Source: an uncultured Candidatus Saccharibacteria bacterium (GTDB taxonomy: Bacteria; Patescibacteriota; Minisyncoccia; Phycocordibacterales; PALSA-1337). Taken from it: a stretch of DNA of 55,154 bases. A program made the position numbers and the translations under genes. A model generated the notes under the pieces. The model did not search any database, was not told where the DNA came from, and saw only the letters and a list, made by a program, of their open reading frames with translations. Positions 1 through 55,154 of this stretch are shown here, piece by piece. The DNA is taken from positions 1-55,154 of the forward strand of contig CAYQFS010000002.1 of NCBI GenBank assembly GCA_964416985.1, read 5' to 3'. Position 1 is the first letter of the stretch. Each line of letters begins with the position of its first letter.

Positions 1-318
1 ATGGAATTTGCAGTTATACAGACAGGCGGAAAGCAGTACAAGGTCTCTGCGGGAGAAACCGTAAAGATTGAGAAGCTAGCTGGAGACCACAAGGAAGGCG
101 ACAAAGTCGTCTTTGACAAGGTTGTGCTTGTTGATAATGGCAAAGACACTACTATCGGAACGCCTTTTATCGAGAAGGCAAAGGTTACTGGCGTCATCAC
201 CAAGATCGGCCGAGCAGCAAAGATTAACGTCATCAAGTACAAGCAGAAGAGCAAGTATTTCAAGAAAAACGGACATCGCCAGCCATTCTTTGAGGTCAAA
301 ATTGAGGGGGTGAAGTAA
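1..318 (+). CDS. rplU: 50S ribosomal protein L21
   Basis: MEFAVIQTGGKQYKV N-terminus and KNGHRQPF C-terminal motif of bL21. Confidence 0.97.
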   Translation: MEFAVIQTGGKQYKVSAGETVKIEKLAGDHKEGDKVVFDKVVLVDNGKDTTIGTPFIEKAKVTGVITKIGRAAKINVIKYKQKSKYFKKNGHRQPFFEVKIEGVK

Positions 319-327
319 AGAAATTAA

Positions 328-582
328 ATGATTCCGTCACCATCGTGGCTCATCTTTAATCTTATAGTTGAGCTTTTGATATTAATACTCGTTATTCTCG
401 TACCTCTCGGGATCATTTCAGGGATTGTTTTTATTTTTGTGCGAAAGGCTGAACTAGATCTCAAGAAGAAAAGTATTTATAAAAAGGTAATGATCTGGAG
501 TTTTGTAGGACCTATTGGTGGATTGATTTTTATTTTAATAGTTTGGGGATTTGTTTACGTTCTCGGTCAGACATTAGCTTAA
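328..582 (+). CDS. small hypothetical membrane protein (2 TM)
   Basis: 84 aa, two long hydrophobic stretches separated by a basic loop. Confidence 0.7.
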   Translation: MIPSPSWLIFNLIVELLILILVILVPLGIISGIVFIFVRKAELDLKKKSIYKKVMIWSFVGPIGGLIFILIVWGFVYVLGQTLA

Positions 583-633
583 TGCGCCTTACTGTAAGGT
601 GGTAAAAAATAACGAAAAGTTCGTTAAAAAGTA

Positions 634-1236
634 CTATCCTCGATTCTTCAGCGCACTTTTGATTGTCTCTCCATCCGCATACTCAAGCTCTGTTCCCGTT
701 GAAAGTCCTCGTCCAAGTACCGAGACCTTCAGATTCTTGTCTGAAAAATTCTCTGCGATGTGATCACGAATAAAATCCGCTGTATGTTCGCCGTCAGCTG
801 TTGCATTTAATGAAAGAATAATTTCTTTGAATTGTCCTTTCGAAATTCGGGAATCGAGTTCTTTGAGACGAACTCTTTTCTCAGGTTCTTTTTCAAGAAT
901 GGGAATGATTCCACCTAAAACAAAATAGAAGCCATTGTAGACTTTGCTTTTTTCAATTGCCTCAAAGTCGACGTCGCGAGAGACAATCATGAGCTGTGTC
1001 GCATCACGGTTTGGATCACTACAAACAGGGCAGGTTGTAGAGCGTCCATCAGGATAAAAGCGATAACAGAGAGAGCATATGCGAACACTTTTCTTTATCT
1101 CGGTAATAAGTCGCGAAATGTCCTCGAGTTCGGAGGAATTGCGGGTCAAAAGAAAATAGACAAAGCGTTTTGCCTGGCGGGGACCGATTCCGGGAAATTC
1201 CCTAAAATATTCTGCAAGTTTATGAAGAGGATCCAT
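634..1236 (-). CDS. recR: recombination mediator RecR
   Basis: HhH (FPGIGPRQAKR), Cys4 zinc finger, TOPRIM region (LSLNATADGEHT, GRGLSTGTELEYAD). Confidence 0.96.
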   Translation of the reverse strand: MDPLHKLAEYFREFPGIGPRQAKRFVYFLLTRNSSELEDISRLITEIKKSVRICSLCYRFYPDGRSTTCPVCSDPNRDATQLMIVSRDVDFEAIEKSKVYNGFYFVLGGIIPILEKEPEKRVRLKELDSRISKGQFKEIILSLNATADGEHTADFIRDHIAENFSDKNLKVSVLGRGLSTGTELEYADGETIKSALKNRG

Positions 1237-1254
1237 CGTATGGGTGGGTGTGAA

Positions 1255-2652
1255 TTAAAAATCAGCGCTTCCCGGAGCTGCAAAATCTCCAAAGTCGCTC
1301 TTTTCGACGCTCATGAATGTTGTCTTCTTTTCATCAAAGTAGAGTTCAACCATTCCCGTGGCACCGTTTCGATGCTTTTCAATGAGGATTTTTGCAATGT
1401 TTGGCCGAGCAGAATCCTTGTCATACTTGTCCTCACGATGAATGAACATTACAACATCGGCGTCTTGTTCAATAGATCCTGAATCTCGAAGGTCGGAGAG
1501 TCGTGGCTGGCCTCCTCGTTGCTCAACCGCTCGAGAAAGCTGTGAGAGAGCAATGACGGGAACTTCAAGCTCTCGAGCAAGCTGTTTCAATGAGCGGGAG
1601 ATTTCGGTGACCTGCTGGACCATGTTGTCGCTGTTTCGCGACTGTGTAGGAACCATGAGCTGTAAGTAATCAACGACAATGAGCCCGAGTCCCTTTTCAG
1701 ATTTGAGACGTCGGGCAACAGCGCGCATCTTCAAAATATTGTTTGCAGGCTGGTCATCGATGTAGATAGGTGCATTTGAAAGGCGATCCATTGCATCCCG
1801 GATTGCCTTGAAGTCATGTTCAATGGAAAGGTTGTGTCCTGTTCGGAGTTTCCAAGCATCAACTTGAGATTCTGCAGAAAGCATACGGTCAACGAGTTGC
1901 TGCGAACTCATTTCAAGAGAAAAGATACCGACAGGGACTTTGTGGTCGATTGCTGCCTTGCGAGCAATATCGAGAGCAAGAGAAGTTTTTCCCATGGAAG
2001 GTCTGGCTGCGAGGATAATAAGATCGGACTTCTGGAATCCAGCAAGCTTGTTGTCGAGTCCGACAAATCCTGTTGGAACACCACGAAGTTCATGCTTTGT
2101 ATTGTGGAGATGATCAATTCTCTCCCAAGCTTCAGAGAGCGTGTCTCCGATTGCCACAAATTTGTGAGTTCCGGTGAAGTTTGTCACCTCAAAAATCTTT
2201 TTCTCTGCCTTGTCGAGAAGTTCGTCGAGTTCTCCGGCTTCATCAAAGCCAAGTTCTCCCACAAATTCAGAAGCGGTAATGAGATCTCGCATAATATGCT
2301 TCTTTTGCACAATCTCGGCGTAGTATTTTGCATTTGTTGAAGAAGGAACTCCCTGAACAAGCTCGGTGAGGTAACTCATTCCTCCGCATTGTTCGAGAAG
2401 ATCTTTTTCTTTGAGACGTGATGAAAGGGAAAGGAGATCGATCGGCGTGCCTTTGGTATGAAGTTCCATCATTGTCGCCCAGATCATACGGTGCCGGTCG
2501 GAATAAAAAGATCGTTCAAAAATAATATCGGTTACATCATGCATCACTTCTGGACGAATCATGATTGAACCTAGAAGAGCCTTCTCCGCTTCGAGGCTTT
2601 GTGGGGGAATTCTCAGATCCTTTGTTTTGAAATAAGGCGATGTCGAATTCAT
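1255..2652 (-). CDS. dnaB: replicative DNA helicase DnaB
   Basis: PPQSLEAE N-terminus, Walker A ARPSMGKT, VDYLQLM, SDLRDSGSIEQDAD; no intein. Confidence 0.98.
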   Translation of the reverse strand: MNSTSPYFKTKDLRIPPQSLEAEKALLGSIMIRPEVMHDVTDIIFERSFYSDRHRMIWATMMELHTKGTPIDLLSLSSRLKEKDLLEQCGGMSYLTELVQGVPSSTNAKYYAEIVQKKHIMRDLITASEFVGELGFDEAGELDELLDKAEKKIFEVTNFTGTHKFVAIGDTLSEAWERIDHLHNTKHELRGVPTGFVGLDNKLAGFQKSDLIILAARPSMGKTSLALDIARKAAIDHKVPVGIFSLEMSSQQLVDRMLSAESQVDAWKLRTGHNLSIEHDFKAIRDAMDRLSNAPIYIDDQPANNILKMRAVARRLKSEKGLGLIVVDYLQLMVPTQSRNSDNMVQQVTEISRSLKQLARELEVPVIALSQLSRAVEQRGGQPRLSDLRDSGSIEQDADVVMFIHREDKYDKDSARPNIAKILIEKHRNGATGMVELYFDEKKTTFMSVEKSDFGDFAAPGSADF

Positions 2653-2795
2653 GTGTTTCCAATTATATCACCCTCAAAATAAAAGGGGAGAAGTTCGGCA
2701 AGCACAAAAGTTCATAAGGTGTGGGAAGGGTGGGGAAAAGATCGGCTTAATAAAGGTTTATCCACTTTCATTTATAAAAATGCTATACTTTCCCC

Positions 2796-3245
2796 ATGAA
2801 AATACTTGTCGCTTCGGATCATGCTGGTTTTGAACTCAAAAACAAAGTAAAGGACTTTTTGAAGACCGAGGGCTTTGATGTTGAAGACATGGGAGCCGCA
2901 ACGTTTGTTGAGGATGATGATTACCCAAAATACATGGTTCCAACGGCCATGAGAATCATAAACGACCCGGAAAATACAAAGGCGATTATTTTTGGAAAAT
3001 CAGGTCAAGGAGAGGCAATGGTTTCAAACCGTTTTCCAGGAGTTCGCGCAGCGGTTTATTATTCACACAACCTCGAGATCATTCGACTCTCACGACAGCA
3101 TAATGATGCAAATATACTTTCGATTGGTGCTGGATTTATTACAGAAGAGCAGGCGATAGAAGCAGTGAAAACGTGGATTGCGACACCGTTCAGCGCAGAA
3201 GAGAGACATACGAGACGAATTGAGCAAATGGATAATATTCAATAA
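2796..3245 (+). CDS. rpiB: ribose-5-phosphate isomerase B (Cys-less, GxSGxGE type)
   Basis: ASDHAGFELK, GKSGQGE, SRQHNDANILSIGA motifs. Confidence 0.93.
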   Translation: MKILVASDHAGFELKNKVKDFLKTEGFDVEDMGAATFVEDDDYPKYMVPTAMRIINDPENTKAIIFGKSGQGEAMVSNRFPGVRAAVYYSHNLEIIRLSRQHNDANILSIGAGFITEEQAIEAVKTWIATPFSAEERHTRRIEQMDNIQ

Positions 3246-3256
3246 TTTTTACAACC

Positions 3257-3922
3257 ATGGAAATAATTCCCGCGATTCTGCCAAAAGATTTTAAAGAAAT
3301 AGAAGAAAAGATTGAGCTCATTACTGGCATGGTGACACGTGTGCAGGTGGATATTTGTGATGGAAAATTTGTGCCGTCAACGACATGGCCGTACAAAAAA
3401 CCGGATTCAAATTATGAGGCAATCCTTCGAGAAGAAAGAGGAATGCCGGAATGGGAGACGATTGATTACGAATTTGACCTCATGATCAAGGATCCAACGG
3501 AGGATGATATGAGAAACTGGCTTTCAGTTGGAGCTGCACGAATTGTTCTTCACGCAGATTCATCTCCTGATCTAACACCTTGTATAAATGTTTTGAATGG
3601 ACTTGCGGAAATCGGCCTTGCATTAAATATAAAAACTCCGATAGATGTAATTGAAAAATATAAAGACAAGATCTCGTATATACAACTCATGGGAATTACC
3701 AAAGTCGGTTTTCAAGGACAGGCTTTTGATCCGAGAGTTCTTTCTAAAATTAAGGAAATAAAAGAAAAGTATCCTGAGATGGTTGTGCAAATAGATGGGG
3801 GAGTGAGTCTTGCGACGGCAGAAGAACTTCGAGATGCAGGAGCGGATCGGCTCATTGTGGGTTCGGCCCTTTTTGGATCTGACAACGTTGTGGATACTCT
3901 CTATCAACTTCAGAGAATCTAA
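3257..3922 (+). CDS. rpe: ribulose-phosphate 3-epimerase
   Basis: IIPAIL, DICDGKFVP, QIDGGV, IVGSALF; context between rpiB and tkt. Confidence 0.88.
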   Translation: MEIIPAILPKDFKEIEEKIELITGMVTRVQVDICDGKFVPSTTWPYKKPDSNYEAILREERGMPEWETIDYEFDLMIKDPTEDDMRNWLSVGAARIVLHADSSPDLTPCINVLNGLAEIGLALNIKTPIDVIEKYKDKISYIQLMGITKVGFQGQAFDPRVLSKIKEIKEKYPEMVVQIDGGVSLATAEELRDAGADRLIVGSALFGSDNVVDTLYQLQRI

Positions 3923-3937
3923 TGGTACAATTATGAG

Positions 3938-4828
3938 ATGAGACCCACGTCGCCTCTCACTGAAGAAAAAGCTCGTGCTCTTTTTGAAAAAGCATATACA
4001 ATTCGACAATCAATTGTCGAGATGCTCATTGAGGCAAAATCAGGTCACACCGCGGGCCCTCTCGACATGGCTGATGTTTTTACCTACCTCTATTTTCACG
4101 CCCTGAAGTACGATGCAAAAAATCCTAAATGGGAATATCGAGATAGGGTTGTTCTTTCGAATGGACATATTTGCCCAGTTTTGTATGCCACAATGGCTCA
4201 CGCTGGATATTTTCCTTTGTCTGAATTAAAAACGCTTCGAAAATTTGGTTCAAAACTTCAGGGTCATCCTCACCGGGAATTTTTGCCAGCTCTTGAAACT
4301 TCCTCAGGTCCTCTTGGTTCCGGTTTGTCACAGGCTGTTGGAATGGCTCTCGCCGAAAGAATGGATTTTGGAAAAACTTCAGGAAAGCAGTTTGTTTGTC
4401 TTACGGGTGATGGAGAACTCGATGAAGGACAAAATTGGGAGGCTATTATGCTTGCAGGAAAAGAGAAAATTCAAAACCTCACTGTTTTTGTCGATCGAAA
4501 TAATATCCAGATTGATGGATTTACCGAAGACGTCATGCCTTTGAATCCTCTTGCAGATAAATGGCGCTCATTCGGCTGGCATGTTCAGGAGGTTGATGGG
4601 CACAATTTTCGCGCTCTCGATGGTGCTTGGACTCAGGCCCTCTCTGTTTTTGACCGACCTTCGGTTATCATTTGCTACACCATTGCCTCAAAGGGTGTTC
4701 CAGAATTCGAACGTAAATATGAATGGCACGGCAAACCTCCGACGACGCCGGAGGAAATAGCCACTGCCCGTTCGGCACTCCATATTGTTAGGACAATGGG
4801 AGGAAAGGTGAAAGGAGAGCATGAATAG
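3938..4828 (+). CDS. transketolase, N-terminal (TPP-binding) subunit
   Basis: SGHTAG, LSNGH, GDGELDEGQNWEA TPP motif. Confidence 0.95.
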   Translation: MRPTSPLTEEKARALFEKAYTIRQSIVEMLIEAKSGHTAGPLDMADVFTYLYFHALKYDAKNPKWEYRDRVVLSNGHICPVLYATMAHAGYFPLSELKTLRKFGSKLQGHPHREFLPALETSSGPLGSGLSQAVGMALAERMDFGKTSGKQFVCLTGDGELDEGQNWEAIMLAGKEKIQNLTVFVDRNNIQIDGFTEDVMPLNPLADKWRSFGWHVQEVDGHNFRALDGAWTQALSVFDRPSVIICYTIASKGVPEFERKYEWHGKPPTTPEEIATARSALHIVRTMGGKVKGEHE

Positions 4829-4867
4829 GTGAATATTTAAAAAGTATTAAATAATAATTAAAATAAT

Positions 4868-5134
4868 ATGAAAAAATTTGAAATAACATTGAAGGTAGGT
4901 TTTATTTTACTTGCGCTTGCACTTATCATCACAGGTCAAGTCAATTCAATGGGGCTCATGATTTTCCTTCTTGTGAGCTTTGCTCTTGGAGGAGTTCTCA
5001 TCTTTAATAAGGATTCGAGCTATAGTCACAAGCACACAAAGAAAGAATTTAAGATTCGAAAACTTGAGGGAGTCATTCTTGTTCTCTTTTCAGTCTTTGC
5101 GTGGTGCTGGCTTACTGGAATCATTGTGATGTAA
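4868..5134 (+). CDS. small hypothetical membrane protein (3 TM)
   Basis: 88 aa with three hydrophobic segments, between the two transketolase halves. Confidence 0.7.
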   Translation: MKKFEITLKVGFILLALALIITGQVNSMGLMIFLLVSFALGGVLIFNKDSSYSHKHTKKEFKIRKLEGVILVLFSVFAWCWLTGIIVM

Positions 5135-5159
5135 ATCTGTCCGGTAATTTTTGTCTGTA

Positions 5160-6161
5160 ATGATTAACCCTGATCAAAAATTAAATCCAAAACTTCTCGA
5201 TCTAAATGTCGAGCAGGTTCCTATCCGAAAAGGCTTCGGAGAGGGACTTTTGATTGCGGGTGATCATGACAAAAACGTGGTGGGACTTTGCGCGGATCTC
5301 ACTGATTCGACTCAGATGCATCTATTTAAAAATAAATATCCTGATCGATTTATCCAGATGGGAGTTGCGGAACAAAATCTCGCCTCAGTCGCTTCTGGAC
5401 TTGCAGCAATGGGAAAGATTCCATTCATAACTTCGTATGCAATGTTTTCTCCAGGAAGAAATTGGGAGCAGATTCGTACAACTATTTGTTACAATGATCG
5501 CCCAGTCAAAATTGCCGGATCTCATGCTGGAATTTCTGTCGGTCCTGACGGAGGAACCCATCAAGCTATCGAAGACCTTGCCATTACTCGAGTCATTCCA
5601 AACATGGTTGTTATCTCTCCTTGTGACGTCATTGAGGCCAAAAAGGCGACTATTGTTTCTGCTCAAACAAAATATCCAACATACATTCGTCTTGCTCGTG
5701 AAAAAACGCCGGTCATTACAACTGATGCAAGTCCTTTTGTAATTGGAAAATCCCAACTTCTTTTTGCTCCGGCACACAACCAGCGAGCCGAAGTGGGAAT
5801 TATTGCAACTGGCGCTCTTGTCTACAAGGCTCTTAAGGTTGCAGTGGATCTCGAAAGGGAAGGAAAGAGAGTCAAGGTTTTGAATCTCTCGACCATTAAA
5901 CCTCTCGATGAGGATGCTGTCTGGCGTCTTGGTCACGAGACAGGAGCCCTCGTAACTGTTGAGGAACATCAGATTATTGGTGGAATGGGATCTGCGGTTG
6001 CCGAATGCGTTGCTCGTCACTATCCTGTTCCGATTGAATTTATCGGAGTCAAAGATAAATTTGGCCAGTCAGGAACACCCGATGAACTCCTCGAGCACTA
6101 TGGAATGGGGGAGAGACATATAAGGGAAGCTGTGAAGAAGGTGCTATTGCGAAAAAAATAG
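5160..6161 (+). CDS. transketolase, C-terminal (pyrimidine-binding) subunit
   Basis: GVAEQN, GPDGGTHQ, VTVEEH motifs; ATG 5160 preferred over TTG 5151. Confidence 0.95.
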   Translation: MINPDQKLNPKLLDLNVEQVPIRKGFGEGLLIAGDHDKNVVGLCADLTDSTQMHLFKNKYPDRFIQMGVAEQNLASVASGLAAMGKIPFITSYAMFSPGRNWEQIRTTICYNDRPVKIAGSHAGISVGPDGGTHQAIEDLAITRVIPNMVVISPCDVIEAKKATIVSAQTKYPTYIRLAREKTPVITTDASPFVIGKSQLLFAPAHNQRAEVGIIATGALVYKALKVAVDLEREGKRVKVLNLSTIKPLDEDAVWRLGHETGALVTVEEHQIIGGMGSAVAECVARHYPVPIEFIGVKDKFGQSGTPDELLEHYGMGERHIREAVKKVLLRKK

Positions 6162-18583: not shown

Positions 18584-18656
18584 GGGCCCTTAGCTCATCT
18601 GGTAGAGCACCTCATTTGCAATGAGGGGGTGGCAGGTTCGAGTCCTGTAGGGTCCA
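18584..18656 (+). tRNA. tRNA-Ala(TGC)
   Basis: cloverleaf: acceptor GGGCCCT/AGGGTCC with G3:U70, anticodon arm CCTCA-TTTGCAA-TGAGG, T arm GCAGG-TTCGAGT-CCTGT; CCA not encoded. Confidence 0.96.
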
Positions 18657-47205: not shown

Positions 47206-47766
47206 ATGGACGAAAATACTAAAGAAAATAATGAGGAAGTTATAATCGAAGCTGATGAAAACCTTGATGACTCTGTTCTTGCTGAGGAATCAGCACTTGA
47301 GACAGTAAAATCCCTCAAAGAAAAGCTCAAAAAGGCACTTGCAGAAAAGCAGGAATATTTAAATAGCTGGCAAAGGGACAAGGCTGAATTTATAAACGCA
47401 CGAAAAAGAGACCAGGAAGCGCAGAAGGACTTTGCTCGTTTTTCTAATGAAAATTTGATCTCTGAACTCATTCCAGTGCTCGATAGTTTTAATATGGCAA
47501 TGGGAAACAAGGAGGCTTGGGAAAAGGCTGATAAAAATTGGCGAGTGGGTGTTGAGTACATTGCAAATCAGCTCAAGAAAACCCTTGAGGATTTCGGTTT
47601 GAAGGAAATTGATCCTCTTGGAAAGCCATTTGATCCGATGCGAGATGAAGCAATAGAAGACGGGAAGGAGGGTAATCTCGTGACCACAGTCATACAGAAG
47701 GGTTATGAGCTTAATGGAAAGGTGCTCAAGGCGCCGAGGGTGAAGATTGGGGAGGTTAAGAAGTAG
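47206..47766 (+). CDS. grpE: nucleotide exchange factor GrpE
   Basis: RDKAEFINARKR, LIPVLDSF, FDPMRDEA, QKGYELNGKVLKAPRV. Confidence 0.96.
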   Translation: MDENTKENNEEVIIEADENLDDSVLAEESALETVKSLKEKLKKALAEKQEYLNSWQRDKAEFINARKRDQEAQKDFARFSNENLISELIPVLDSFNMAMGNKEAWEKADKNWRVGVEYIANQLKKTLEDFGLKEIDPLGKPFDPMRDEAIEDGKEGNLVTTVIQKGYELNGKVLKAPRVKIGEVKK

Positions 47767-47770
47767 GTAC

Positions 47771-47797
47771 AAAAAATCCGCACTAATGCGGTTTTTT
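47771..47797. terminator. bidirectional terminator
   Basis: AAAAAATCCGCA-ctaa-TGCGGTTTTTT. Confidence 0.75.
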
Positions 47798-47841
47798 GCG
47801 AAGTTTACCTTCGTGGTTTCCCCTTCTCGCTAGATAGATAA

Positions 47842-47887: not shown

Positions 47888-47902
47888 TGTGGACATAGAC
47901 CG
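47888..47902 (+). repeat. attL-like site (core TGTGGA plus P' arm ACATAGACCG)
   Basis: TGTGGA repeated at 55100-55105; arm is an 8/10 inverted match to 55093-55102. Confidence 0.75.
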
Positions 47903-48190
47903 TAAAACATCGAACACCATCAAAATCTTTGTTTTTGAATGGTATCAATTCTTAAATCACCGTAATAACGGGAAAATAACGGTGAAATTGTAGGAAAAAT
48001 TTATTTTTAAGTACCACAATTCTCATATTAGAATTGTATGTATTTCTCTTTCTTCTTGTACTGGCGCGAATTTTTTTCAAAAAGAGCTTTTGCCCGTATT
48101 AGCGGGCAATTAGCGGGTAATGAAAGCTTAATTTTTCTTTAACTAGTGAATCAAGCCTTAAAATGATAAAATCGTATTATAAATGCCTTT

Positions 48191-49813
48191 ATGTTAAAAA
48201 CTTCCGACCAACAATTTAAAGAATGGCTTACTAAACCAGAAGGACTAAATTTAGAGTTCAAAAAAGCGGAGAATAGTTTCAGTGAATCAAAAGATTTGCC
48301 TGATTATTGTGCTGCCCTGGCTAACGAAGGTGGCGGGAAACTAATCCTCGGAGTAACGAATGATAAGCAAATAACAGGCACGAAGGCTTTTGAAGGTAAT
48401 ACAGACTCACTATCTCATAAAATTTTGCAAATCATAAAAATACGAGTAGATGTTGAAGAAACAATTATTGATGATAAACGCATTTTAATTTTTCATGTTC
48501 CAAGTCGTCCTATAGCAACAATAATTAGTTCTGGCGGTGATTATAGATATCCTATGCGGGCAGGTAGTTCTTTAGTAGAAATGACTCAAGAAAAGATAAG
48601 AGAAATTCACAGCGAAACGCAATCAGATTTTTCAACACAGATTGTTCCAAAGTTAGCAATTGATGATATGGACCCGTCAGCAGTCGATACTTTTAAAGCT
48701 CTTTGGGCAAGACAGCAAAACAATGATGAGTACCTTAATTTCTCGATGGAAAAGGTATTGAGTTCAATTCACGTTCTTTCAGATGAAGGAATAAACTATG
48801 CTGGTCTTGTTCTTTTTGCCAAAAGCGAGAAAATAAGCGAATTATTGCCTGGTGCAGAAATTATCTTTGAATGGAGGCAGGAAGAAAAAATAGGGCATGA
48901 CTTTCGTAAAGAATGGCGAGTTCCTTTCTTCTCTATCTTTGATGATATTTGGGCGACTATCAATGCAAGAAACATAAGGTTCCCTTTCCAAGAGGGCTTT
49001 ATACAAAGAGAGGTTTTTGCTTTTAATGAGAAAACTATTCGAGAGGCTGTTTTAAATGCAGTAACACATAGAGACTACAATATTCAGTCACAATCAGTGT
49101 TTATTAAAGCTTCGCCCGAACAATTTTTAATACTAAGTCCTGGTGGTTTTGTAAAAGGCATTACAGCAGAAAATATACTTAATCGTTCCGCTTGGCGTAA
49201 CCGTCGTATTGCAGAAGTGTTGCAAATGGCGGGCTTGGTAGAAAGGGCGGGGCAAGGTATGGATACAATTTTCGGTAATACTATTCGTGAGGGTAAGGGG
49301 GTCCCAGATTTTAGCGGTAGCGATAATGATTGGGTTAGTTTGCATATACCAGCAAAGGTGAAAGATGAACAGTTTATTCTCTTTTTAGAGAAAGTGACAA
49401 ATGACAAACAAATTACTCTCTCCTTTGAAGAAATTTGTGAGCTAGAGAGTATTAGAGAACATCAAAAGGTTACAGATGTCAGTTCAAAAGAGAAATTCTT
49501 GAGTTTGGGAATTATTGAAAAAGTGGGTAGGACCAGTGGGGCAAAATATATTCTTTCTCATAAATGGTATCAATACAAAGAGAGACCAGGTTTGTATACA
49601 AAGATTGTTGGGCTTTCTCGCGAAAAAAATAAAGAACTAATTCTTACTCATCTTATAAAAAATCCTGAAGGAGCAAAAAGTGCTGATTTTCAAGACGCAC
49701 TCGGGCTTGACCAAAAGACGGTTAATAATATGTTACAAGAATTAAAGCAGGAAAATAAAGTTCGATTTGAAGGCGCTAAAGCCTCGGGAAAATGGTTTAT
49801 CGCAAGTAGTTAA
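48191..49813 (+). CDS. AlbA_2/Schlafen-domain ATP-binding protein (RecG-C/HATPase-like plus wHTH)
   Basis: LEFKKA..AALANEGGGKLILGV; IREAVLNAVTHRDY; RNRRIAEVL..GLVERAGQG; C-terminal wHTH. Confidence 0.88.
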   Translation: MLKTSDQQFKEWLTKPEGLNLEFKKAENSFSESKDLPDYCAALANEGGGKLILGVTNDKQITGTKAFEGNTDSLSHKILQIIKIRVDVEETIIDDKRILIFHVPSRPIATIISSGGDYRYPMRAGSSLVEMTQEKIREIHSETQSDFSTQIVPKLAIDDMDPSAVDTFKALWARQQNNDEYLNFSMEKVLSSIHVLSDEGINYAGLVLFAKSEKISELLPGAEIIFEWRQEEKIGHDFRKEWRVPFFSIFDDIWATINARNIRFPFQEGFIQREVFAFNEKTIREAVLNAVTHRDYNIQSQSVFIKASPEQFLILSPGGFVKGITAENILNRSAWRNRRIAEVLQMAGLVERAGQGMDTIFGNTIREGKGVPDFSGSDNDWVSLHIPAKVKDEQFILFLEKVTNDKQITLSFEEICELESIREHQKVTDVSSKEKFLSLGIIEKVGRTSGAKYILSHKWYQYKERPGLYTKIVGLSREKNKELILTHLIKNPEGAKSADFQDALGLDQKTVNNMLQELKQENKVRFEGAKASGKWFIASS

Positions 49814-49983
49814 TAGTAGTTAATAATTGGCACTAAATCTTAAACAAAAGTACTAGTTTAAAGGATAAAAAGTGTCTTAAATAAGTTAAGAATAAGTTGA
49901 GTTTGTTTTAAATGAGGTATGTTTTTTTTAAATGCAAAACATTGTAAAGTGGCCGTTTTTATGGCACAATACTTCTCAATACG

Positions 49984-51192
49984 ATGAACTCGGAAAAGGT
50001 CCAAAAAATTGTAGAGAACATTGGTACTCCCTGCTTTATCTACGACAAAGCGGTTCTTGACCAGAATATACAGAGGGTTTTTACATCTGCTTCTCATCAC
50101 GAATTAAATGAAAGAATAAAAATTTACATCTCATATTTTTCTAATTCTAATCCGGCTTTATTTTCTGAAATTAAGAATGAAAAAATCGGACTCTTACTTC
50201 AAACCGAGGAAGAATGGTACCAGCTTCAGAAAGGGGGTCTTCAGAAAAATATGCTTGTTTCGCCCTCATTTCTTTCTAACGAAGAAATTGATTTTTGGGT
50301 TAGCAAAGGAATTAGAGTAAATCTCGCCTCGCTTGAGGAAGTTCAGTATACATTGGAAAAATACCCAGATTATCCTATCAGCTTTAGGTTGGACTTTACC
50401 TTTTGGCAAAATCAGAGAACAGGAATAAAGAAGAAAGAGCTACCTGCTTTATTAGAAATACTACATAAATACAATAGAAAACCTCACTCATTTCATGTAT
50501 ACGCTGGTACAGGAAGTAGTTTGTCACAGATGAAAAAAGCGGCACAAAGGACACTAAAGCTCTATGAGTCTCATTTCCCTGACGTTGAGGAAATAAACTT
50601 TGGCGGTGGTTTTGGTTTTGACTACACCGCTAAAAAACCAGAGGATAAGCATTTTGATTGGGATAGTTATTTTGCTTTTTTAACCACTCTTATTTCAGAA
50701 AGTAAGGTCCCTAAAAACGTAAAGTTATCTTTTGAGCCAGGTCGTGATTTGTTCGCAGATATTGGAGTTCTTGCGACTAGGGTAAAAAGAGTCCTGAATA
50801 ACAGGTCTGTTTTAGACGTCGCTACTGATAGCTCATTTGTTTATATGCCTTCAGCGACAAAGAGGGCGCGAACTCATCAATTAAATTTTATGAGGGACTA
50901 CAAGATTATGACGGACTTCAGAGCTACAAAAGCTATGTTAAGTGGTTGTACTACTCTCTCAAAAGATTATCTTCTACCTGAAAAGGTTGAGGTACCATCA
51001 GATATAAAAATCGGAGACTTAGTAATCGTAAAAGATGTTGGGGCTTATGGTGCAACGCAACATCTTGAATTTTTGAATAAAAGACCAGCACCGGAAGTCT
51101 TGATAAATGGCGATGAAAACTACTTGATTTCAGAGAGAGGGGCCCTTGAAGATAGGGTACGATATTTGGTTTCTCCCATTAAGAAAATATAA
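49984..51192 (+). CDS. fold-III PLP decarboxylase (LysA/ODC family) homologue, atypical active site
   Basis: GTPCFIYD, INFGGGFG, FEPGR, DVGAYG; YAxKAN motif appears as SYFSNSN. Confidence 0.85.
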   Translation: MNSEKVQKIVENIGTPCFIYDKAVLDQNIQRVFTSASHHELNERIKIYISYFSNSNPALFSEIKNEKIGLLLQTEEEWYQLQKGGLQKNMLVSPSFLSNEEIDFWVSKGIRVNLASLEEVQYTLEKYPDYPISFRLDFTFWQNQRTGIKKKELPALLEILHKYNRKPHSFHVYAGTGSSLSQMKKAAQRTLKLYESHFPDVEEINFGGGFGFDYTAKKPEDKHFDWDSYFAFLTTLISESKVPKNVKLSFEPGRDLFADIGVLATRVKRVLNNRSVLDVATDSSFVYMPSATKRARTHQLNFMRDYKIMTDFRATKAMLSGCTTLSKDYLLPEKVEVPSDIKIGDLVIVKDVGAYGATQHLEFLNKRPAPEVLINGDENYLISERGALEDRVRYLVSPIKKI

Positions 51193-51986
51193 TGAAAATT
51201 GAAGACACAAAACTCTATACATCAGCCGACACCTACTTTGAAGGTCCTGATGGTATGAAAAATGAAGTAGCGATGTGGTACATTGCCTCTGGTTTACTCA
51301 TGAGAGAAATTGCAAAAAGAAAGGGTAATTTACCTTTTGGCGGACTAGGTAAAACACAAGGATATGCCATTACTCCTGACAAAGCTGACACTCTTGATTT
51401 GCTAGACCTTTGTAGCGGTCCTGGTAATTTTGTAAATCACTTAAGCTTTGCTTTTCCCTGGCTCAATGCCGTATGTGTTGATGTGAATGATACTTTCTTG
51501 AAGGCGGGACAAAAGCAGTTTGATAAATGGTCCTTTATCAATGCAGATGTTACAAAGCTTGATTTGGGTAAACAATTTGATTGCGTTACTGCCAGCTCTG
51601 CTTATCACCACATAGAACATAGTCAAAAGATAGATTTCTTAAAAACTATTAAGAAGCACTTGAAGAAGGGTGGTTTTGCTTTGATATGTGAAAACTTCTT
51701 GCCTGAATATTCTTCAGATGAAGAAAGAACTGAAAGCATAAAGCTGTATTACAGCGAACTTATAAGCTACTACAAAGAGGGTAATGCAACAGAAAAATCT
51801 ATTGAGGCTATTGATGAGGTCTTTAAGCTTGAATTAGCCGGAGTGGAAGAACATAAGGTAACAAGAGCTATATTTGAAAAACAGGTGAAAGAAGTGGGAT
51901 TGTCCATAGATATTGATATTGTCGTTTGGCAATCTGAAAAGTTGCGTTCAAGTAATGCAGGTTCGCATGTTTTGGTTTTATCATAG
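51192..51986 (+). CDS. class I SAM-dependent methyltransferase
   Basis: LLDLCSGPG motif I, VCVD, NAD, FDCV.ASSAYHH, LKKGG; TAATG overlap with the upstream gene. Confidence 0.9.
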   Translation: MKIEDTKLYTSADTYFEGPDGMKNEVAMWYIASGLLMREIAKRKGNLPFGGLGKTQGYAITPDKADTLDLLDLCSGPGNFVNHLSFAFPWLNAVCVDVNDTFLKAGQKQFDKWSFINADVTKLDLGKQFDCVTASSAYHHIEHSQKIDFLKTIKKHLKKGGFALICENFLPEYSSDEERTESIKLYYSELISYYKEGNATEKSIEAIDEVFKLELAGVEEHKVTRAIFEKQVKEVGLSIDIDIVVWQSEKLRSSNAGSHVLVLS

Positions 51987-52000
51987 ATAGCCTCGGACCC

Positions 52001-52029
52001 TTGCATTGAATTATACCTCTACGTATAAT
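52001..52029 (+). promoter_or_regulatory. sigma70 promoter TTGCAT-N17-TATAAT
   Basis: near-consensus, 7 nt before ATG 52037. Confidence 0.65.
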
Positions 52030-52036
52030 ATGGGGT

Positions 52037-52852
52037 ATGAAGGAAAAACCTATAGTTATATGCGGTGACTGGTACGACATTGCTTTCGCTAATTTCGTAC
52101 AGAAAGATAAAGAGTTATACGAAAATTACTATTTACTTCTCCAGGTCCCTCGTTATCGTGTCTCTGATACTGATGAAAAATATCGAGTTATAAATTATTG
52201 GGACGAACAAGGCTTGCTCTTGAATGAGCGAGGTAAGACGGACTCGTGGCGCAAGTTTAGTATCCTTGATGTTATTTGGATACGCATACTCCAAACACTC
52301 AAAGAGTACGGCATGGAAGGCGACAAAATTTTACGTCTCAAATCGGACCTATTTCAGGTCCAAGATAAAGAAGGACGATATACGGAGTTTGCTTTCTGGG
52401 TGAATATGGCGCACCACTACAAAGATGTATTTTTGATTGTGTTATCAGATGGCAGAGGGACCATAGCCACAACAACCGACATTGAGTTTCAACAGCTTAT
52501 CGAGCCATTTAAGCAGTCATTTATTTCCGTTGATTTTCGATACATTGTTCGGTCCATTATCTTTCCTAAAAATAAAGGTAAAAAGGTTGTTGAGTTTAAT
52601 CGCAAACTCGATGAGAAAGAAATTGAGCTATTGAACGCACTCTCGAATGTGAACGTTGAGACTGTTACAGCGCATTTGAAGAAAGGCAAGATTGACCGTA
52701 TCGAATGGAAAAGCGTTGAGCAAAACCCTGAACGGCTTTTTGAGATGTTGAGAAAGAAAATTTATGAGTCTCCAAACCAGACCATCACCCTCAAAAGGCA
52801 AGATGGAAAAGTTCTTTTTATAGAGCAGAAAAAGAGTCAGAAATTACCCTGA
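52037..52852 (+). CDS. MerR-family HTH protein
   Basis: YRVINYWDEQGLL...WRKFSILDVIWIRIL..LKEYG. Confidence 0.8.
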   Translation: MKEKPIVICGDWYDIAFANFVQKDKELYENYYLLLQVPRYRVSDTDEKYRVINYWDEQGLLLNERGKTDSWRKFSILDVIWIRILQTLKEYGMEGDKILRLKSDLFQVQDKEGRYTEFAFWVNMAHHYKDVFLIVLSDGRGTIATTTDIEFQQLIEPFKQSFISVDFRYIVRSIIFPKNKGKKVVEFNRKLDEKEIELLNALSNVNVETVTAHLKKGKIDRIEWKSVEQNPERLFEMLRKKIYESPNQTITLKRQDGKVLFIEQKKSQKLP

Positions 52853-52940
52853 CTCGAATAAGGTGACCGAGTAGCGGAGCCATTATATTTCCCGAGACAG
52901 ATGACCGATAAACGGAGTTTGCTCACAAGAAAAATATGAA

Positions 52941-53102
52941 GTGCTTACTCCACAACAAGCTCGGAAGTATCTCAAGAAACGAGACATTTCCGACGAACGA
53001 TTGAAAGTGATACTTGGGTATCTGTACGGATTGGTCGAAACAATGATTAAACAAGAACGAAAAAGCTATGAGCGACATATCAGACAAACAGCACGAGGCT
53101 AA
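52941..53102 (+). CDS. small hypothetical protein (53 aa from GTG; possible frameshifted start)
   Basis: VLTPQQARKYLKKRDISDERLKVILGYLYGLV..., a helical small protein typical upstream of LSRs; not in ORF track. Confidence 0.45.
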   Translation: MLTPQQARKYLKKRDISDERLKVILGYLYGLVETMIKQERKSYERHIRQTARG

Positions 53103-53547
53103 CAAACAAAACGCTCTTTTGGGCGGTGTTAAAACCGACGAGGGTAAGGCTATTTCTCGCTACAACGCCGTACGTCATGGAATTTTGAGAGAAACCATAA
53201 CGGAGTACGAGAAGATAGACCATGAACGCATATTCAACGAGTTTGCCGACTTCTATAAGCCTGAAAATCTCGTTGAGGAAATTCTGGTTGAACGTTTGAC
53301 TGTGGCTTATATAAAAATGGCTCGTGTCTCTCGGGCAGAAAACGAGCTTATGAAAAGTGCTATTGACCCCACGATACCTTTTGGCGAGGGTGTTTCCTAT
53401 TATGAAAAGATTGGATATAAGGTGGTCCTGCCATCGGATAAAGTGACACTACTTTCCGATGTCTATGCTCGATATGAGACTGCTGTAGAAAAGCGTTTCT
53501 ATAGGGCTATGAACACCCTTAATGAGCTTAAAAAGACATACGCATGA
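53068..53547 (+). CDS. hypothetical mobile-element protein
   Basis: GGVKTDEGKAISRYNAVRHG motif; ATGA coupling to the LSR. Confidence 0.75.
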   Translation: MSDISDKQHEANKQNALLGGVKTDEGKAISRYNAVRHGILRETITEYEKIDHERIFNEFADFYKPENLVEEILVERLTVAYIKMARVSRAENELMKSAIDPTIPFGEGVSYYEKIGYKVVLPSDKVTLLSDVYARYETAVEKRFYRAMNTLNELKKTYA

Positions 53548-55139
53548 GTACTAAATCCTCAAAAATGGGTTTGTTTGGTAAAAAGCTCAAGATTGAGGAT
53601 TATGAGTTTGCCCTTAGCTATTGTCGTGTATCTTCAAAGAAACAAGAGCTTGAGGGTAGTGGGCTTGATAGCCAAGAGACCCGAAATGAACAACTCGCAA
53701 AATATCACAAGCTAAAAATCGAGAAAGTTTTTCGGGATACGTTCTCGGGTGGTGGCGATTTCATGAAGCGTCCCGACATGCGTGAGCTTATTGAATATCT
53801 CGACGCACACCCGTACAGAAAATACGTAGTTATCTTTGATGACCTCAAGCGCTTTGCTCGTGACACAAAATTTCACTTTGAGCTTAGGACGGCTCTTGAG
53901 GCTCGCAACGCTTTACCTCTGTGCTCAAACTTTGTCTTTGACGATACGCCCGAAGGTGTCTTTGTCGAGACAATTCAAGCGGCACATAATCAGCTCGAAC
54001 GCGAACAGAATAGACGACAGGTGATAGAAAAGCAGAGAGCATGTCTTGAACGTGGCTATTGGGCTTTTCACTCGCTTAAGGGCTATTCAAAGAGTAAAAC
54101 GAGCATTGGTAAGCGTGATGAGCCTAACGAGCAAAATAAGTACATCAGAGAGCTTTTTGAGGGGTTCTTTTCCGGTCGTTTTCAGCAATTTATTGATGGG
54201 GCACGTTTTCTCAAAGAGACGAAAGTGCTCGGGAAGGCACACCCTGAAAAATATATTGAGACGGTTAAGAGTATTCTCACGCAACCTTTCTACGCAGGCT
54301 TTTTAGAATACCCGAAATGGGAAGTGTCTCGACGACAAGGAATACATGAACCGACTGTCAGCCCTGAATTGTTTGAGGCGGTCCAAAAGAAAATCACCCG
54401 TAACTACAATGTTGTAAAAGTAAGACAAGATATTAACCCTGATTTTCCTTTGCGTGGTTTAGTGAGCTGTGCAGTTTGCAAGAGTAAACTCACTGGCGCA
54501 TGGTCCAAAGGCAAAAAACAATTGTACCCGTATTACTTTTGTCAGAATAAAAAGTGTCCGCTCAAGAGTTCTGTTATCCGAAGGAAGGACCTCGAAGATA
54601 AATTCGAGGAGCTCTTGCAGAAGATGACAACCGACGACGATATTATCGAGCTCGCAAAAGCTGTTTTCATTGACGCAAAAGAAACTGATGAAAAAGAGTC
54701 AGTTTTGGAAAAGAAAACGTATGCCAAGCGAAAAGAAGAATGTGAGGCTGATATTGAAAACTATATGGAGCGTGCCGGTAAAGCCAAGGTCCCGTCAGTG
54801 ATTGCTCAATACGAAAAGAAAATCGAGAAGTTGGCGGCCGAACTTGAACAATTGGAGTCAGATAGCCTTGCCGAGTACGACTATGGCGTACCTTATCGAA
54901 CAGCCTTGGACAAAGTAATGGGCGTGCTTAAAAACCCTTATCCTACTTGGGCGGAGTTCGATGTTTTCGGGCAACAGAAGTTCTTTTCATTCCTTTTTGA
55001 GGTGAATTTAGAGTACGACAAAAAAGAGGGTTATCGAACACCAAAATATACAGTCCTTAAAAGGGTTTTAGAGGAAATTGAGTCCTCTGGCTCGGTTGAT
55101 GTGGAGATGACGGGAGTCGAACCCGCAAACCCCAGCTAG
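53544..55139 (+). CDS. large serine recombinase
   Basis: YCRVSS catalytic Ser, DDLKRFAR, recombinase domain, zinc ribbon CAVC...YYFCQNKKC, coiled coil. Confidence 0.95.
   Translation: MSTKSSKMGLFGKKLKIEDYEFALSYCRVSSKKQELEGSGLDSQETRNEQLAKYHKLKIEKVFRDTFSGGGDFMKRPDMRELIEYLDAHPYRKYVVIFDDLKRFARDTKFHFELRTALEARNALPLCSNFVFDDTPEGVFVETIQAAHNQLEREQNRRQVIEKQRACLERGYWAFHSLKGYSKSKTSIGKRDEPNEQNKYIRELFEGFFSGRFQQFIDGARFLKETKVLGKAHPEKYIETVKSILTQPFYAGFLEYPKWEVSRRQGIHEPTVSPELFEAVQKKITRNYNVVKVRQDINPDFPLRGLVSCAVCKSKLTGAWSKGKKQLYPYYFCQNKKCPLKSSVIRRKDLEDKFEELLQKMTTDDDIIELAKAVFIDAKETDEKESVLEKKTYAKRKEECEADIENYMERAGKAKVPSVIAQYEKKIEKLAAELEQLESDSLAEYDYGVPYRTALDKVMGVLKNPYPTWAEFDVFGQQKFFSFLFEVNLEYDKKEGYRTPKYTVLKRVLEEIESSGSVDVEMTGVEPANPS
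55093..55105 (+). repeat. attR-like site (P arm CGGTTGATGT plus core)
   Basis: core TGTGGA 55100-55105 inside the LSR ORF. Confidence 0.75.
55102..55126 (-). other. tmRNA/tRNA-Ala-like 3' end fragment (T arm, acceptor 3' strand, discriminator)
   Basis: GCGGG-TTCGACT-CCCGT-CATCTCC-A; upstream bases lack the GGAC or anticodon arm expected of an intact gene. Confidence 0.65.
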
Positions 55140-55154
55140 CGAGAAGGAGTTCCA

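Follow-up and report, generated by a model that had tools for sequence, protein, structure and literature searches.

An island at the 3' end of the host tmRNA gene

The window analysed here, a 55,154-nucleotide stretch (positions 1 to 55,154, forward strand) of contig CAYQFS010000002.1 from an uncultured Candidatus Saccharibacteria bacterium (GCA_964416985.1; GTDB lineage Bacteria; Patescibacteriota; Minisyncoccia; Phycocordibacterales; PALSA-1337), carries a 7.2-kb mobile island (47889-55105) in the end of the host's tmRNA gene, with the following features at and around it.

47206..47766 (+): host grpE, the last host gene to the left of the island (Pfam PF01025, E 1.1e-33)
47778..47791 (no strand): bidirectional terminator-like hairpin in the host intergenic DNA between grpE and the former tmRNA 3' end
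47889..47893 (+): attL core GTGGA, the left junction of the island, antisense of the tRNA/tmRNA 3' end ...UCCAC
47889..47915 (+): P' half-site of attP, retained in attL, with the T-loop-like TCGAAC at 47910-47915, offset 22 from the core
47889..47993 (+): orphan tail-coding fragment (V + DIDRKTSNTIKIFVFEWYQFLNHRNNGKITVKL + TAG) with no start codon of its own, which becomes codons 520-553 of the integrase gene after excision
48191..49813 (+): cargo, Schlafen/AlbA_2 + HATPase_c_4 protein (Pfam; PHROG 'DNA helicase' and weak PADLOC matches)
49984..51192 (+): cargo, PLP-dependent decarboxylase related to LysA, below the family cut-off
51192..51986 (+): cargo, SAM-dependent methyltransferase
52037..52852 (+): first integration module gene, a MerR-like HTH protein (271 aa; Pfam MerR_1), conserved upstream of the integrase in relatives (21-56% identity to the neighbours of related integrases)
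52941..53102 (+): second integration module gene, a conserved 53-aa ORF with a GTG start (tblastn hits in the same position in 17 loci)
53068..53547 (+): third integration module gene, a conserved 159-aa protein of unknown family whose stop overlaps the integrase start (ATGA), with 46-62% identity in related loci L093, L089, L006 and L004 and no Pfam, PHROG or NCBIfam hit
53544..55139 (+): large serine recombinase (LSR), integrated isoform (531 aa)
55076..55100 (+): P half-site of attP, inside LSR codons 512-519, where AlphaFold2 (AF2) predicts a low-confidence linker
55101..55105 (+): attR core GTGGA (codon 520 GTG plus the first two bases of codon 521)
55099..55154 (-): 3' part of the host tmRNA (ssrA) gene, cut by the window end, whose B' half-site has TCGAAC at 55117-55122, offset 17

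The cargo has 34-39% GC against 44% in the host DNA. The recombinase has the domain order of a large serine integrase, with an N-terminal resolvase-type catalytic domain (PF00239, residues 24-171, E 1.4e-18; R28, V29 and S30 invariant in 31 and in 50 homologues), a recombinase domain (PF07508, 196-287) and a zinc ribbon (PF13408, Zn_ribbon_recom, 302-358; C309, C312 and C338 invariant), followed in the AF2 prediction by long helices (365-413 and 417-441) consistent with a coiled-coil insertion. It matched the PHROG_95 integrase profile (E 3.5e-63), and the top Foldseek hits were the Bxb1, SPbeta-type, phiC31 and LI integrases (E 1e-17 to 1e-10).

The LSR ends ...SGSVDV-EMTGVEPANPS, and as positions 55154..55099 on the minus strand match the 3' end of Rfam tmRNA RF00023 (a partial match, E 1e-5, which locus L001 extends by 88 nt), its last 11 codons are tmRNA antisense. 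At the left end GTGGAC starts at 47889 and the same frame is open to the TAG at 47991-47993, and joining the two ends at the shared GTGGA (55101 / 47889; codon 520 is 55101-55103) gives a 553-aa protein, ...SVDV-DIDRKTSNTIKIFVFEWYQFLNHRNNGKITVKL. The preliminary description, which had placed the crossover in codons 520-521 and derived the 531- and 553-aa forms, was found to be correct in every coordinate. An open frame of 33 codons in DNA of this composition is not rare by itself (estimated at about 0.1), and as the shared core is only (T)GTGGA, the window alone could not prove the boundary of the island.

The orphan tail is conserved in related islands

To establish the boundary we compared relatives, here given as loci (L) and proteins (P) with serial numbers. 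Five relatives whose LSR is 75-98% identical (L008, L009, L014, L088 and L089) carry the same GTGGAC + VDIDRKTSNTIK.FVFEWY tail upstream of the LSR, and the sequence to the left of GTGGAC is unrelated in L009, L014, L088 and L089, while the contig of L008 starts at the core. This proves the boundary. Lack of conservation of the tail as coding sequence had been named beforehand as grounds for rejecting the two-isoform reading, and this was not what was found: the tail is conserved as coding sequence, over 23 to 35 residues, at the left end of at least 30 related islands, always on the LSR strand and always starting at the core. A profile built from 16 free tails, with the window left out, scored the window tail at 18.4 bits, and in six-frame scans of 88 sequences it gave 47 hits of at least 14 bits, all on the LSR strand (best minus-strand hit 13.1 bits).

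The family is large and mostly uncultivated (2,638 homologues detected). Nearly all of the 120 listed homologues end in tRNA/tmRNA-antisense peptides straight after the conserved V, and about 10 carry a non-tRNA tail like the one predicted for the window. Genes for tmRNA, tRNA-Ala, tRNA-Tyr and tRNA-Leu are used as targets, and ARAGORN called the 3' end of the tmRNA or tRNA at the first base of the V codon in most relatives where a gene was called. The core is always GTGGA, which lies at both ends in 27 attL/attR pairs, and every paired attL carries a tail in frame with its LSR. The T-loop-like TNGAAY motif sits at offset 22 in 23/27 P' arms and at offset 17 in 19/24 tRNA/tmRNA arms, which equals the 5-bp outward shift of the zinc-ribbon motif in attP relative to attB, and the 25-bp half-site, of Rutherford et al. 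2013 (PMC3783163); the crossover is placed within (T)GTGGA, though not at a particular dinucleotide. In-frame joints of an LSR to a neighbour's tail occur naturally in L004, L006, L018 and L036, and in L096 (protein P0121), which carries the window-type tail.

Codon analysis separated two parts of the tail. In group A tails, codons 1-9, the attP P' half-site, evolve like a DNA site (pN/pS 1.02, pS 0.30), whereas codons 10-32 show protein-level constraint (pS 0.72, pN 0.30, with differences by codon position of 1899/1482/2743). In the window's subfamily, codons 10-23 gave pS 0.48 and pN 0.078, but only the first ~23 tail residues are constrained, residues 24-34 changing freely, with only nonsynonymous change among near-identical elements. 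AF2 placed the crossover in a flexible linker (pLDDT below 50) before a tail predicted to be helical, with pLDDT about 72 in the window form and 80-85 in the natural free form P0070; these are confidence values only and do not place the tail on the enzyme body.

Two state-specific C-termini and their possible role

Taken directly from these comparisons is that 47889-55105 is an integrative island inserted by an LSR at the extreme 3' end (…UCCA|C) of the host tmRNA gene, and that its attP straddles the boundary between the LSR body and a C-terminal tail, with the P arm in LSR codons ~512-519, the crossover in GTGGA and the P' arm and rest of the tail following. Integration leaves the RNA gene intact and moves the tail-coding piece 7.2 kb away to attL, the LSR then reading on into tmRNA antisense, as junk, until a chance stop, and excision or a tandem neighbour restores the tail in frame. 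By inference, as the orphan fragment can only be exposed to selection as protein when joined to the LSR and is nevertheless under protein-level purifying selection beyond the 25-bp half-site, the excised (or tandem) isoform must be made and its tail must matter. Catalysis of attP x attB integration by this enzyme is putative, as is control of its excision by an RDF, for which the genes at 52941-53102 and 53068-53547 are candidate partners, and excision of this copy is inferred rather than seen, as no attP junction of the window's subfamily was found in JGI metagenome contigs. We hold this account with moderate confidence. Bacteroidota relatives keep the intact tail in chromosomal contigs with no tRNA nearby, so the tail is not tied to cycling in every branch.

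The interpretation in the preliminary description was therefore only partly supported: the crossover position, the different C-termini of integrated and excised states and the conserved tail were upheld, but that the two isoforms differ in directionality, stability or RDF-like activity remains a hypothesis. Its analogies to SSV1 and to mycobacteriophage integration-dependent immunity are fair as analogies, whereas the novelty claimed for a serine recombinase was anticipated in 2011 for DsiB of Dehalococcoides ssrA islands. What is added here is the conserved tail, the att architecture and the breadth of the family.

The most likely role for the tail, which is speculative and tentative, is that of a small helical module on a flexible linker acting in cis on the zinc-ribbon/coiled-coil region of the LSR. 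The free-form enzyme would favour attP x attB and the tail-less integrated enzyme would be the one open to excision, possibly helped by the co-transcribed 53-aa or 159-aa proteins, so that the state of the DNA would select the isoform. A C-terminal addition can reset LSR directionality in integrase-RDF fusions (PMC5737554; phiC31 cryo-EM preprint). However, either of the two conserved genes just upstream of the LSR could be a conventional RDF, which would make a tail-based switch unnecessary. In a stronger form, which is doubtful but not excluded, the tailed protein made only from the circle would integrate and the tail-less protein made only from the prophage-like state would be excision-competent, with directionality encoded by the substrate and not (or not only) by a separate RDF, as a natural counterpart of the engineered fusions across this family.

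How serine integrases, widely used for genome engineering, choose between integration and excision is a central question, for which the known answer is a separate directionality protein. Here a large natural family exchanges a selected C-terminal module, predicted to be folded, each time the element changes state. If the tail affects activity, directionality or stability, it is a self-contained switch that could be copied in engineered integrases, and it would also explain how minimal 4.6- to 10-kb islands cycle in the reduced genomes of Patescibacteria. Whatever the tail does, the family has a clean, predictable att grammar (a GTGGA core with the T-loop motif at +17 in attB and +22 in attP) and shows that tRNA and tmRNA genes can be targeted at their very end without being disrupted.

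Of the alternatives, all unlikely, a degradation tag making the free-form LSR short-lived and the integrated form stable survives best: many group A tails end ...ALENA, ...ALEKA or ...ALISA, the Bacteroidota homologue P0098 ends ...SIALAA, and removal of ssrA-like tags has a precedent in phage BPs and its relatives (PMC9262239). However, the window's tail ends ...ITVKL with its C-terminal 11 residues unconstrained, the best-conserved residues are internal aromatics (YLxRFWxYY) and not the last three, and the tail is predicted to be folded.

About equally unlikely is that the tail is an incidental by-product of attP lying at the end of the gene, with the frame simply running on and the conservation reflecting only the DNA requirements of the P' arm. 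The behaviour of codons 1-9, the conserved S/L/W-N dipeptide (which is the TNGAAY T-loop mimic), the unconstrained last 11 codons of the window's tail and the chance of such an open frame favour this, but conservation runs to about codon 32 (about 96 bp), far beyond a 25-bp half-site, with pS saturated there and changes concentrated at third codon positions. L15, F18 and W19 are also invariant across LSRs that are only about 40-50% identical, and AF2 folds the tail with pLDDT 80-85.

It is slightly less likely again that this copy is a fixed, no longer mobile island for which the two-isoform cycle is only history. No circle or empty site was found in the metagenome searches and the flank carries an odd inverted tmRNA-like fragment, but the LSR, both half-sites, the tail and the three module genes are all intact, near-identical elements (98% LSR identity) sit in different flanks, and contig L008 is cut exactly at both cores, as expected if the assembly graph branches there. 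Translation of the orphan fragment on its own, from the in-frame GTG that the core supplies in every element, as a 34-aa peptide acting in trans on the LSR as, for example, an inhibitor or an RDF, is very unlikely, as the DNA upstream is host flank that differs in every locus, so that no promoter or ribosome-binding site can be conserved, and tandem arrays and free forms show the fragment read as part of an LSR.

Comparison with known systems

The closest system is that of the Dehalococcoides ssrA-specific genomic islands and their serine recombinase DsiB (McMurdie et al. 2011, BMC Genomics 12:287, PMC3146451), of about 540 aa, whose gene faces the 3' end of ssrA with its own 3' end, always overlaps the att site and stops only outside the island, in ssrA or in a neighbouring island of a tandem array; the overlap and the external stop are also found here. 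Those authors already suggested that dsiB may be fully functional only on the circle or next to a neighbour supplying the 3' fragment. They judged the overlapping part divergent, showed no conserved tail, and reported a 20-bp direct repeat and a crossover in the T-loop, whereas here only (T)GTGGA is shared, at the discriminator/CCA end, the rest being gapped similarity between the half-sites. Their module (DsiA, RecF-like, ParB, Mom and an embedded tRNA-Gly-like gene) is absent, the module here being MerR-like, 53 aa and 159 aa, and the only tRNA called in the window is at 18584. Both recombinases are weakly CcrB-like (NCBIfam CcrB E 9.6e-17, below the cut-off, for the window LSR; DsiB is 22% identical to CcrB).

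The canonical phage large serine integrases (LI/A118, Bxb1, phiC31 and SPbeta SprA) share the domain order, fold, short att sites and 5-bp motif shift, but there attP lies outside the integrase ORF, the protein is the same in both states and directionality comes from a separate RDF. Identity to them is only 23-28%, and the family is almost absent from the phage and plasmid collections searched. In the SSV1-type 'suicidal' integrases (PMC8371274) attP also lies inside the integrase ORF, so that integration rewrites the gene, but these are tyrosine recombinases, reported only in archaea, whose gene is split into two inactive parts, whereas here only a tail of 33 aa or less, after residue 520, is exchanged and all catalytic and DNA-binding domains stay together.

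In the integration-dependent immunity of mycobacteriophages (BPs, Brujita; Broussard et al. 2013; review PMC9262239), integration at a tRNA gene likewise removes the C-terminus of a phage protein to make a state-specific isoform, but the altered gene is the repressor, the integrase is of the tyrosine type and the part removed is an ssrA-like degron, which is not evident in the window's tail. Engineered integrase-RDF fusions (Olorunniji et al. 2017, PMC5737554) show that what is attached to the C-terminus of an LSR can set directionality, although they are artificial and the fused part is a whole RDF protein.

The end of the recombinase gene and the boundaries of the island

As the preliminary description had placed the crossover within the last codons of the recombinase gene, the gene end and the left end were first examined in the window itself, where the following features were found:

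53544-55139: ORF encoding a 531-aa large serine recombinase (LSR), with Resolvase (residues 24-171), Recombinase (196-287) and Zn_ribbon_recom (302-358) domains
55154..55099, minus strand: match to the 3' end of the Rfam tmRNA model (T-arm and acceptor, E 1e-5), cut by the window end
55101: GTGGA core, with GTG as codon 520 of the LSR
55117: TCGAAC in the tmRNA arm
47889: GTGGA core at the left end
47910: TCGAAC in the tail arm
47991-47993: stop codon of the orphan tail frame

The protein was identified as an LSR by its match to PHROG_95 'integrase' (E 3.5e-63) and by its AlphaFold2 model, for which the Bxb1, SPbeta-type, phiC31 and Listeria LI integrases were the best structural matches. The tmRNA was not called by ARAGORN or by Rfam at gathering thresholds, because the window cuts it, but was found by a permissive search, and a 2.2-kb public contig with the identical gene extends the match by 88 nt. 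The last 11 LSR codons (EMTGVEPANPS) are therefore tmRNA antisense. Joining the two GTGGA cores gives exactly the 553-aa protein that had been predicted in the preliminary description, all of whose coordinates are right; its observation is confirmed. The predicted attP would read ...GGCTCGGTTGAT-GTGGA-CATAGACCGTAAAAC... and the predicted empty attB ...AATCTTTTTTCCCT-GTGGA-GATGACGGGAGTCGAACCC...; the element is held in samples such as SRR13287425.

Within the window alone this arrangement is no more than could be expected by chance, as the shared core is 5-6 bp and a 33-codon open frame in this AT-rich DNA has a chance of roughly 0.1 (our estimate), but comparison with relatives settles the matter. 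The protein has 2,638 detected homologues, mostly from Patescibacteria/CPR metagenome bins. Of 120 of these, nearly all end, straight after the residue aligned with V520, in peptides such as VEMxGIEP or VDPTGxEP, which are antisense readings of tRNA/tmRNA T-arms, while about ten end instead in tails such as DVDTIRNLSNEVKEYLSRFWLLYQNSSNLQKALEEV or DVDSVAKSSNTVKRYILEWSEFFKYNPP, which align with the predicted tail of the window, DVDIDRKTSNTIKIFVFEWYQFL. A profile of 16 such tails, built without the window, scored the window tail at 18.4 bits. When 80 genomic loci of relatives, plus others, were scanned in all six frames with this profile, 47 hits of at least 14 bits were obtained, all on the strand of the LSR, with the best minus-strand hit at 13.1 bits. 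In integrated loci the hit is a short orphan fragment about 3-11 kb upstream of the LSR, in which similarity starts exactly at V-D/E and the residues before it are unrelated from locus to locus.

To test whether the left boundary might be a chance match of 6 bp, we compared the flanks within the window's own subfamily (loci L008, L009, L014, L088 and L089, with LSRs 75-98% identical). The DNA is GTGGACATAGACCG... in all, and the sequence to the left is completely different in each of the four that extend leftward. This rejects a chance match and fixes the left boundary at 47889. That the tail might be the remnant of a disrupted host gene was likewise rejected, as the tail travels with the element and not with the host flank. 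The GC content of the cargo is 34-39%, compared to 44% in host DNA.

The host flank left of attL (47812-47833, plus strand) holds GTGGTTT----CCCCTTCTCGCTAG, which matches 21 of 25 positions of the tmRNA sense strand (GTGGTTTGGAACTCCTTCTCGCTAG), but in the opposite orientation to the tmRNA gene at the right end. This may be a relic of an older rearrangement or a chance match. In relatives (L088-L092) the targeted tmRNA gene lies next to smpB and ftsH, and the smallest island of the window's subfamily is only 4.6 kb (L088, 6965-11560).

Att sites, selection and predicted structure of the tail

In 27 pairs of attL and LSR end the core GTGGA(C/G) was universal. In most relatives where ARAGORN called the target, the 3' end of the RNA gene was the first base of the V codon, the targets called being tmRNA (14), tRNA-Ala (17), tRNA-Tyr (5) and tRNA-Leu (2). 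The crossover is thus at the discriminator/CCA end, and the RNA gene is not disrupted. The T-loop antisense motif TNGAAY starts at offset 17 from the core in 19/24 RNA-gene arms and at offset 22 in 23/27 tail arms. A 5-bp outward shift of the zinc-ribbon-domain motif in attP relative to attB, with 25-bp half-sites, is the architecture found for the Listeria integrase (Rutherford et al. 2013, PMC3783163). These are therefore genuine LSR B' and P' half-sites, and the conserved 'S/L/W-N' of the tail is this DNA motif read as codons.

To investigate whether the tail is a protein or only a DNA site, Nei-Gojobori estimates were computed on 22 group A tails (consensus VDxxGKxLNRLKxYLSRFWxYYQxSPxLQKALExA). 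Codons 1-9 gave a pN/pS of 1.02 with a pS of only 0.30 and flat codon-position counts, which is DNA-level constraint, as expected for the half-site. Codons 10-32 gave a pS of 0.72 (saturated) and a pN of 0.30, with differences by codon position of 1899/1482/2743 and with L15, F18 and W19 invariant. This is protein-level purifying selection, 30-96 bp from the core and so beyond any half-site. In the window's subfamily, codons 10-23 gave a pS of 0.48 and a pN of 0.078, whereas codons 24-34 showed only nonsynonymous change among near-identical elements and differed entirely in L088 and L089. For this element the meaningful tail is therefore about 23 residues, VDIDRKTSNTIK(I/T)FVFEWYQFLN. As the fragment has no start codon and its upstream DNA is host flank, it can only be selected as protein when it is fused to an LSR.

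AlphaFold2 prediction of the reconstructed 553-aa form (mean pLDDT 83) gave a low-confidence linker at 513-526 and a helix at 522-544, with a mean pLDDT of 72 for residues 531-540. For P0070, a natural free-form homologue, it gave a linker at 520-526 with pLDDT below 50, followed by two helices (523-548 and 550-558) at pLDDT 80-85. From these confidence values and secondary structures, the crossover coincides with a predicted flexible linker between the enzyme body and a predicted small helical module. A Pfam search with the tails alone gave nothing meaningful.

Tailed recombinases in relatives and the genes of the island

Tailed LSRs were seen in tandem arrays (L006, L018, L036 and L004), where the upstream LSR reads in frame into the tail of the next element and the last LSR reads into tmRNA. 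Several orphan tails were found in a row upstream of one LSR (L016, three tails, at 1353, 2948 and 3909; L004, at 214; L026, at 6492), which look like remnants of tandem or decayed islands, as with the multiple ssrA repeats of Dehalococcoides. A profile search with the C-terminal 100 aa plus tails returned only 33 short fragments, of which only the protein P0121 was useful. Its contig, L096, joins a different LSR at GTGGA to a window-type tail, and the next ~190 bp are 86% identical to window 47888-48081. This includes about 90 bp after the tail stop (47994-48081, plus strand), with the palindrome ACAATTCTCATATTAGAATTGT. The left-end module may hold a terminator or an operator.

The contig L008 (positions 1-5320), which carries a 98% identical LSR, begins exactly at the left core and ends 54 nt after the start of the right core. 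This is the pattern expected if the assembly graph branches at both att cores, for example from mixed integrated and empty or excised states, and we read it as suggestive only. No circular contig was found, as tests for terminal overlap were negative (L002, L003, L004, L094 and L095), and exact and degenerate pattern scans of JGI metagenome contigs for the window-type attP junction found nothing. The family is almost absent from the phage, plasmid and IMG/VR collections: IMG/VR holds two distant relatives, neither informative, and the plasmid and phage collections hold only relatives of 30% identity or less, so that no free replicon form was found there.

Bacteroidota relatives (L005, L033 and L055) keep an intact tail in chromosomal contigs with no tRNA or second LSR within 10 kb. 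The L005 protein, P0098 (10001-11641), ends ...SIALAA, like an ssrA tag, and lies next to a tyrosine integrase and a TrwB-like coupling protein. In cultured Roseobacter-group genomes (L057-L087, Rhodobacterales and other Alphaproteobacteria) the same LSR family reads into tRNA-Ala or tRNA-Tyr antisense, and in high-GC hosts the frame runs on for up to several hundred junk codons.

Upstream of the LSR lie three genes which, with it, form a four-gene module, and further cargo:

52037-52852: MerR-like protein
52941-53102, plus strand: conserved 53-aa ORF with a GTG start
53068-53547: conserved 159-aa protein, whose stop overlaps the LSR start
48191-49813, plus strand: cargo protein with Schlafen/AlbA_2 and HATPase_c_4 domains

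All three module genes recur in relatives, and none has a known family. The 53-aa ORF is conserved just upstream of the LSR or of the 159-aa gene in 17 related loci and is a candidate small directionality factor, although any of the three could be a conventional directionality factor. The Schlafen/AlbA_2 protein has weak PADLOC matches to pAgo-associated proteins and the neighbouring methyltransferase matches 'mad2', so the cargo may be defence-related.

Interpretation and comparison with known systems

The analysis shows that this is an LSR island in the tmRNA 3' end, that its attP straddles the boundary between the LSR body and its tail, and that integration exchanges the tail for junk, while a tandem neighbour, or excision, which is inferred for this copy, restores the tail in frame. 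That the tailed isoform is made, and that its tail is functional, is inferred with good support, and the recombination activity of the protein is inferred from sequence. The preliminary description had further proposed that the two isoforms form a possible built-in switch for directionality, stability or RDF-like activity, and this interpretation is only partly supported. How the tail might act remains speculative: it may act in cis on the zinc-ribbon/coiled-coil region that sets LSR directionality and at whose hinge RDFs bind, in which case the free-form enzyme would integrate and the tail-less form would be the one open to excision. Engineered integrase-RDF fusions show that C-terminal additions can do this. 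The main mechanistic rival, which we consider unlikely, is a degron role, as some group A tails end ...ALENA and P0098 ends ...IALAA; however, the end of the window's tail is unconstrained and the conserved residues are internal aromatics.

The core idea is not new. McMurdie et al. 2011 (PMC3146451) described the ssrA islands of Dehalococcoides, whose recombinase is DsiB (for example DhcVS_1282), and noted that its gene overlaps the att site and may be fully functional only on the circle or next to a neighbour that supplies the 3' fragment; they considered the overlapping part divergent and did not report a conserved tail, and our literature search found no follow-up. SSV1-type integrases (archaeal tyrosine recombinases, whose gene is split into inactive halves) and mycobacteriophage integration-dependent immunity (in which a repressor is truncated and a degron removed) are analogies, not relatives. 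What is new here is the selected tail, the att grammar and the breadth of the family across Patescibacteria, with branches in Bacteroidota and Rhodobacterales.
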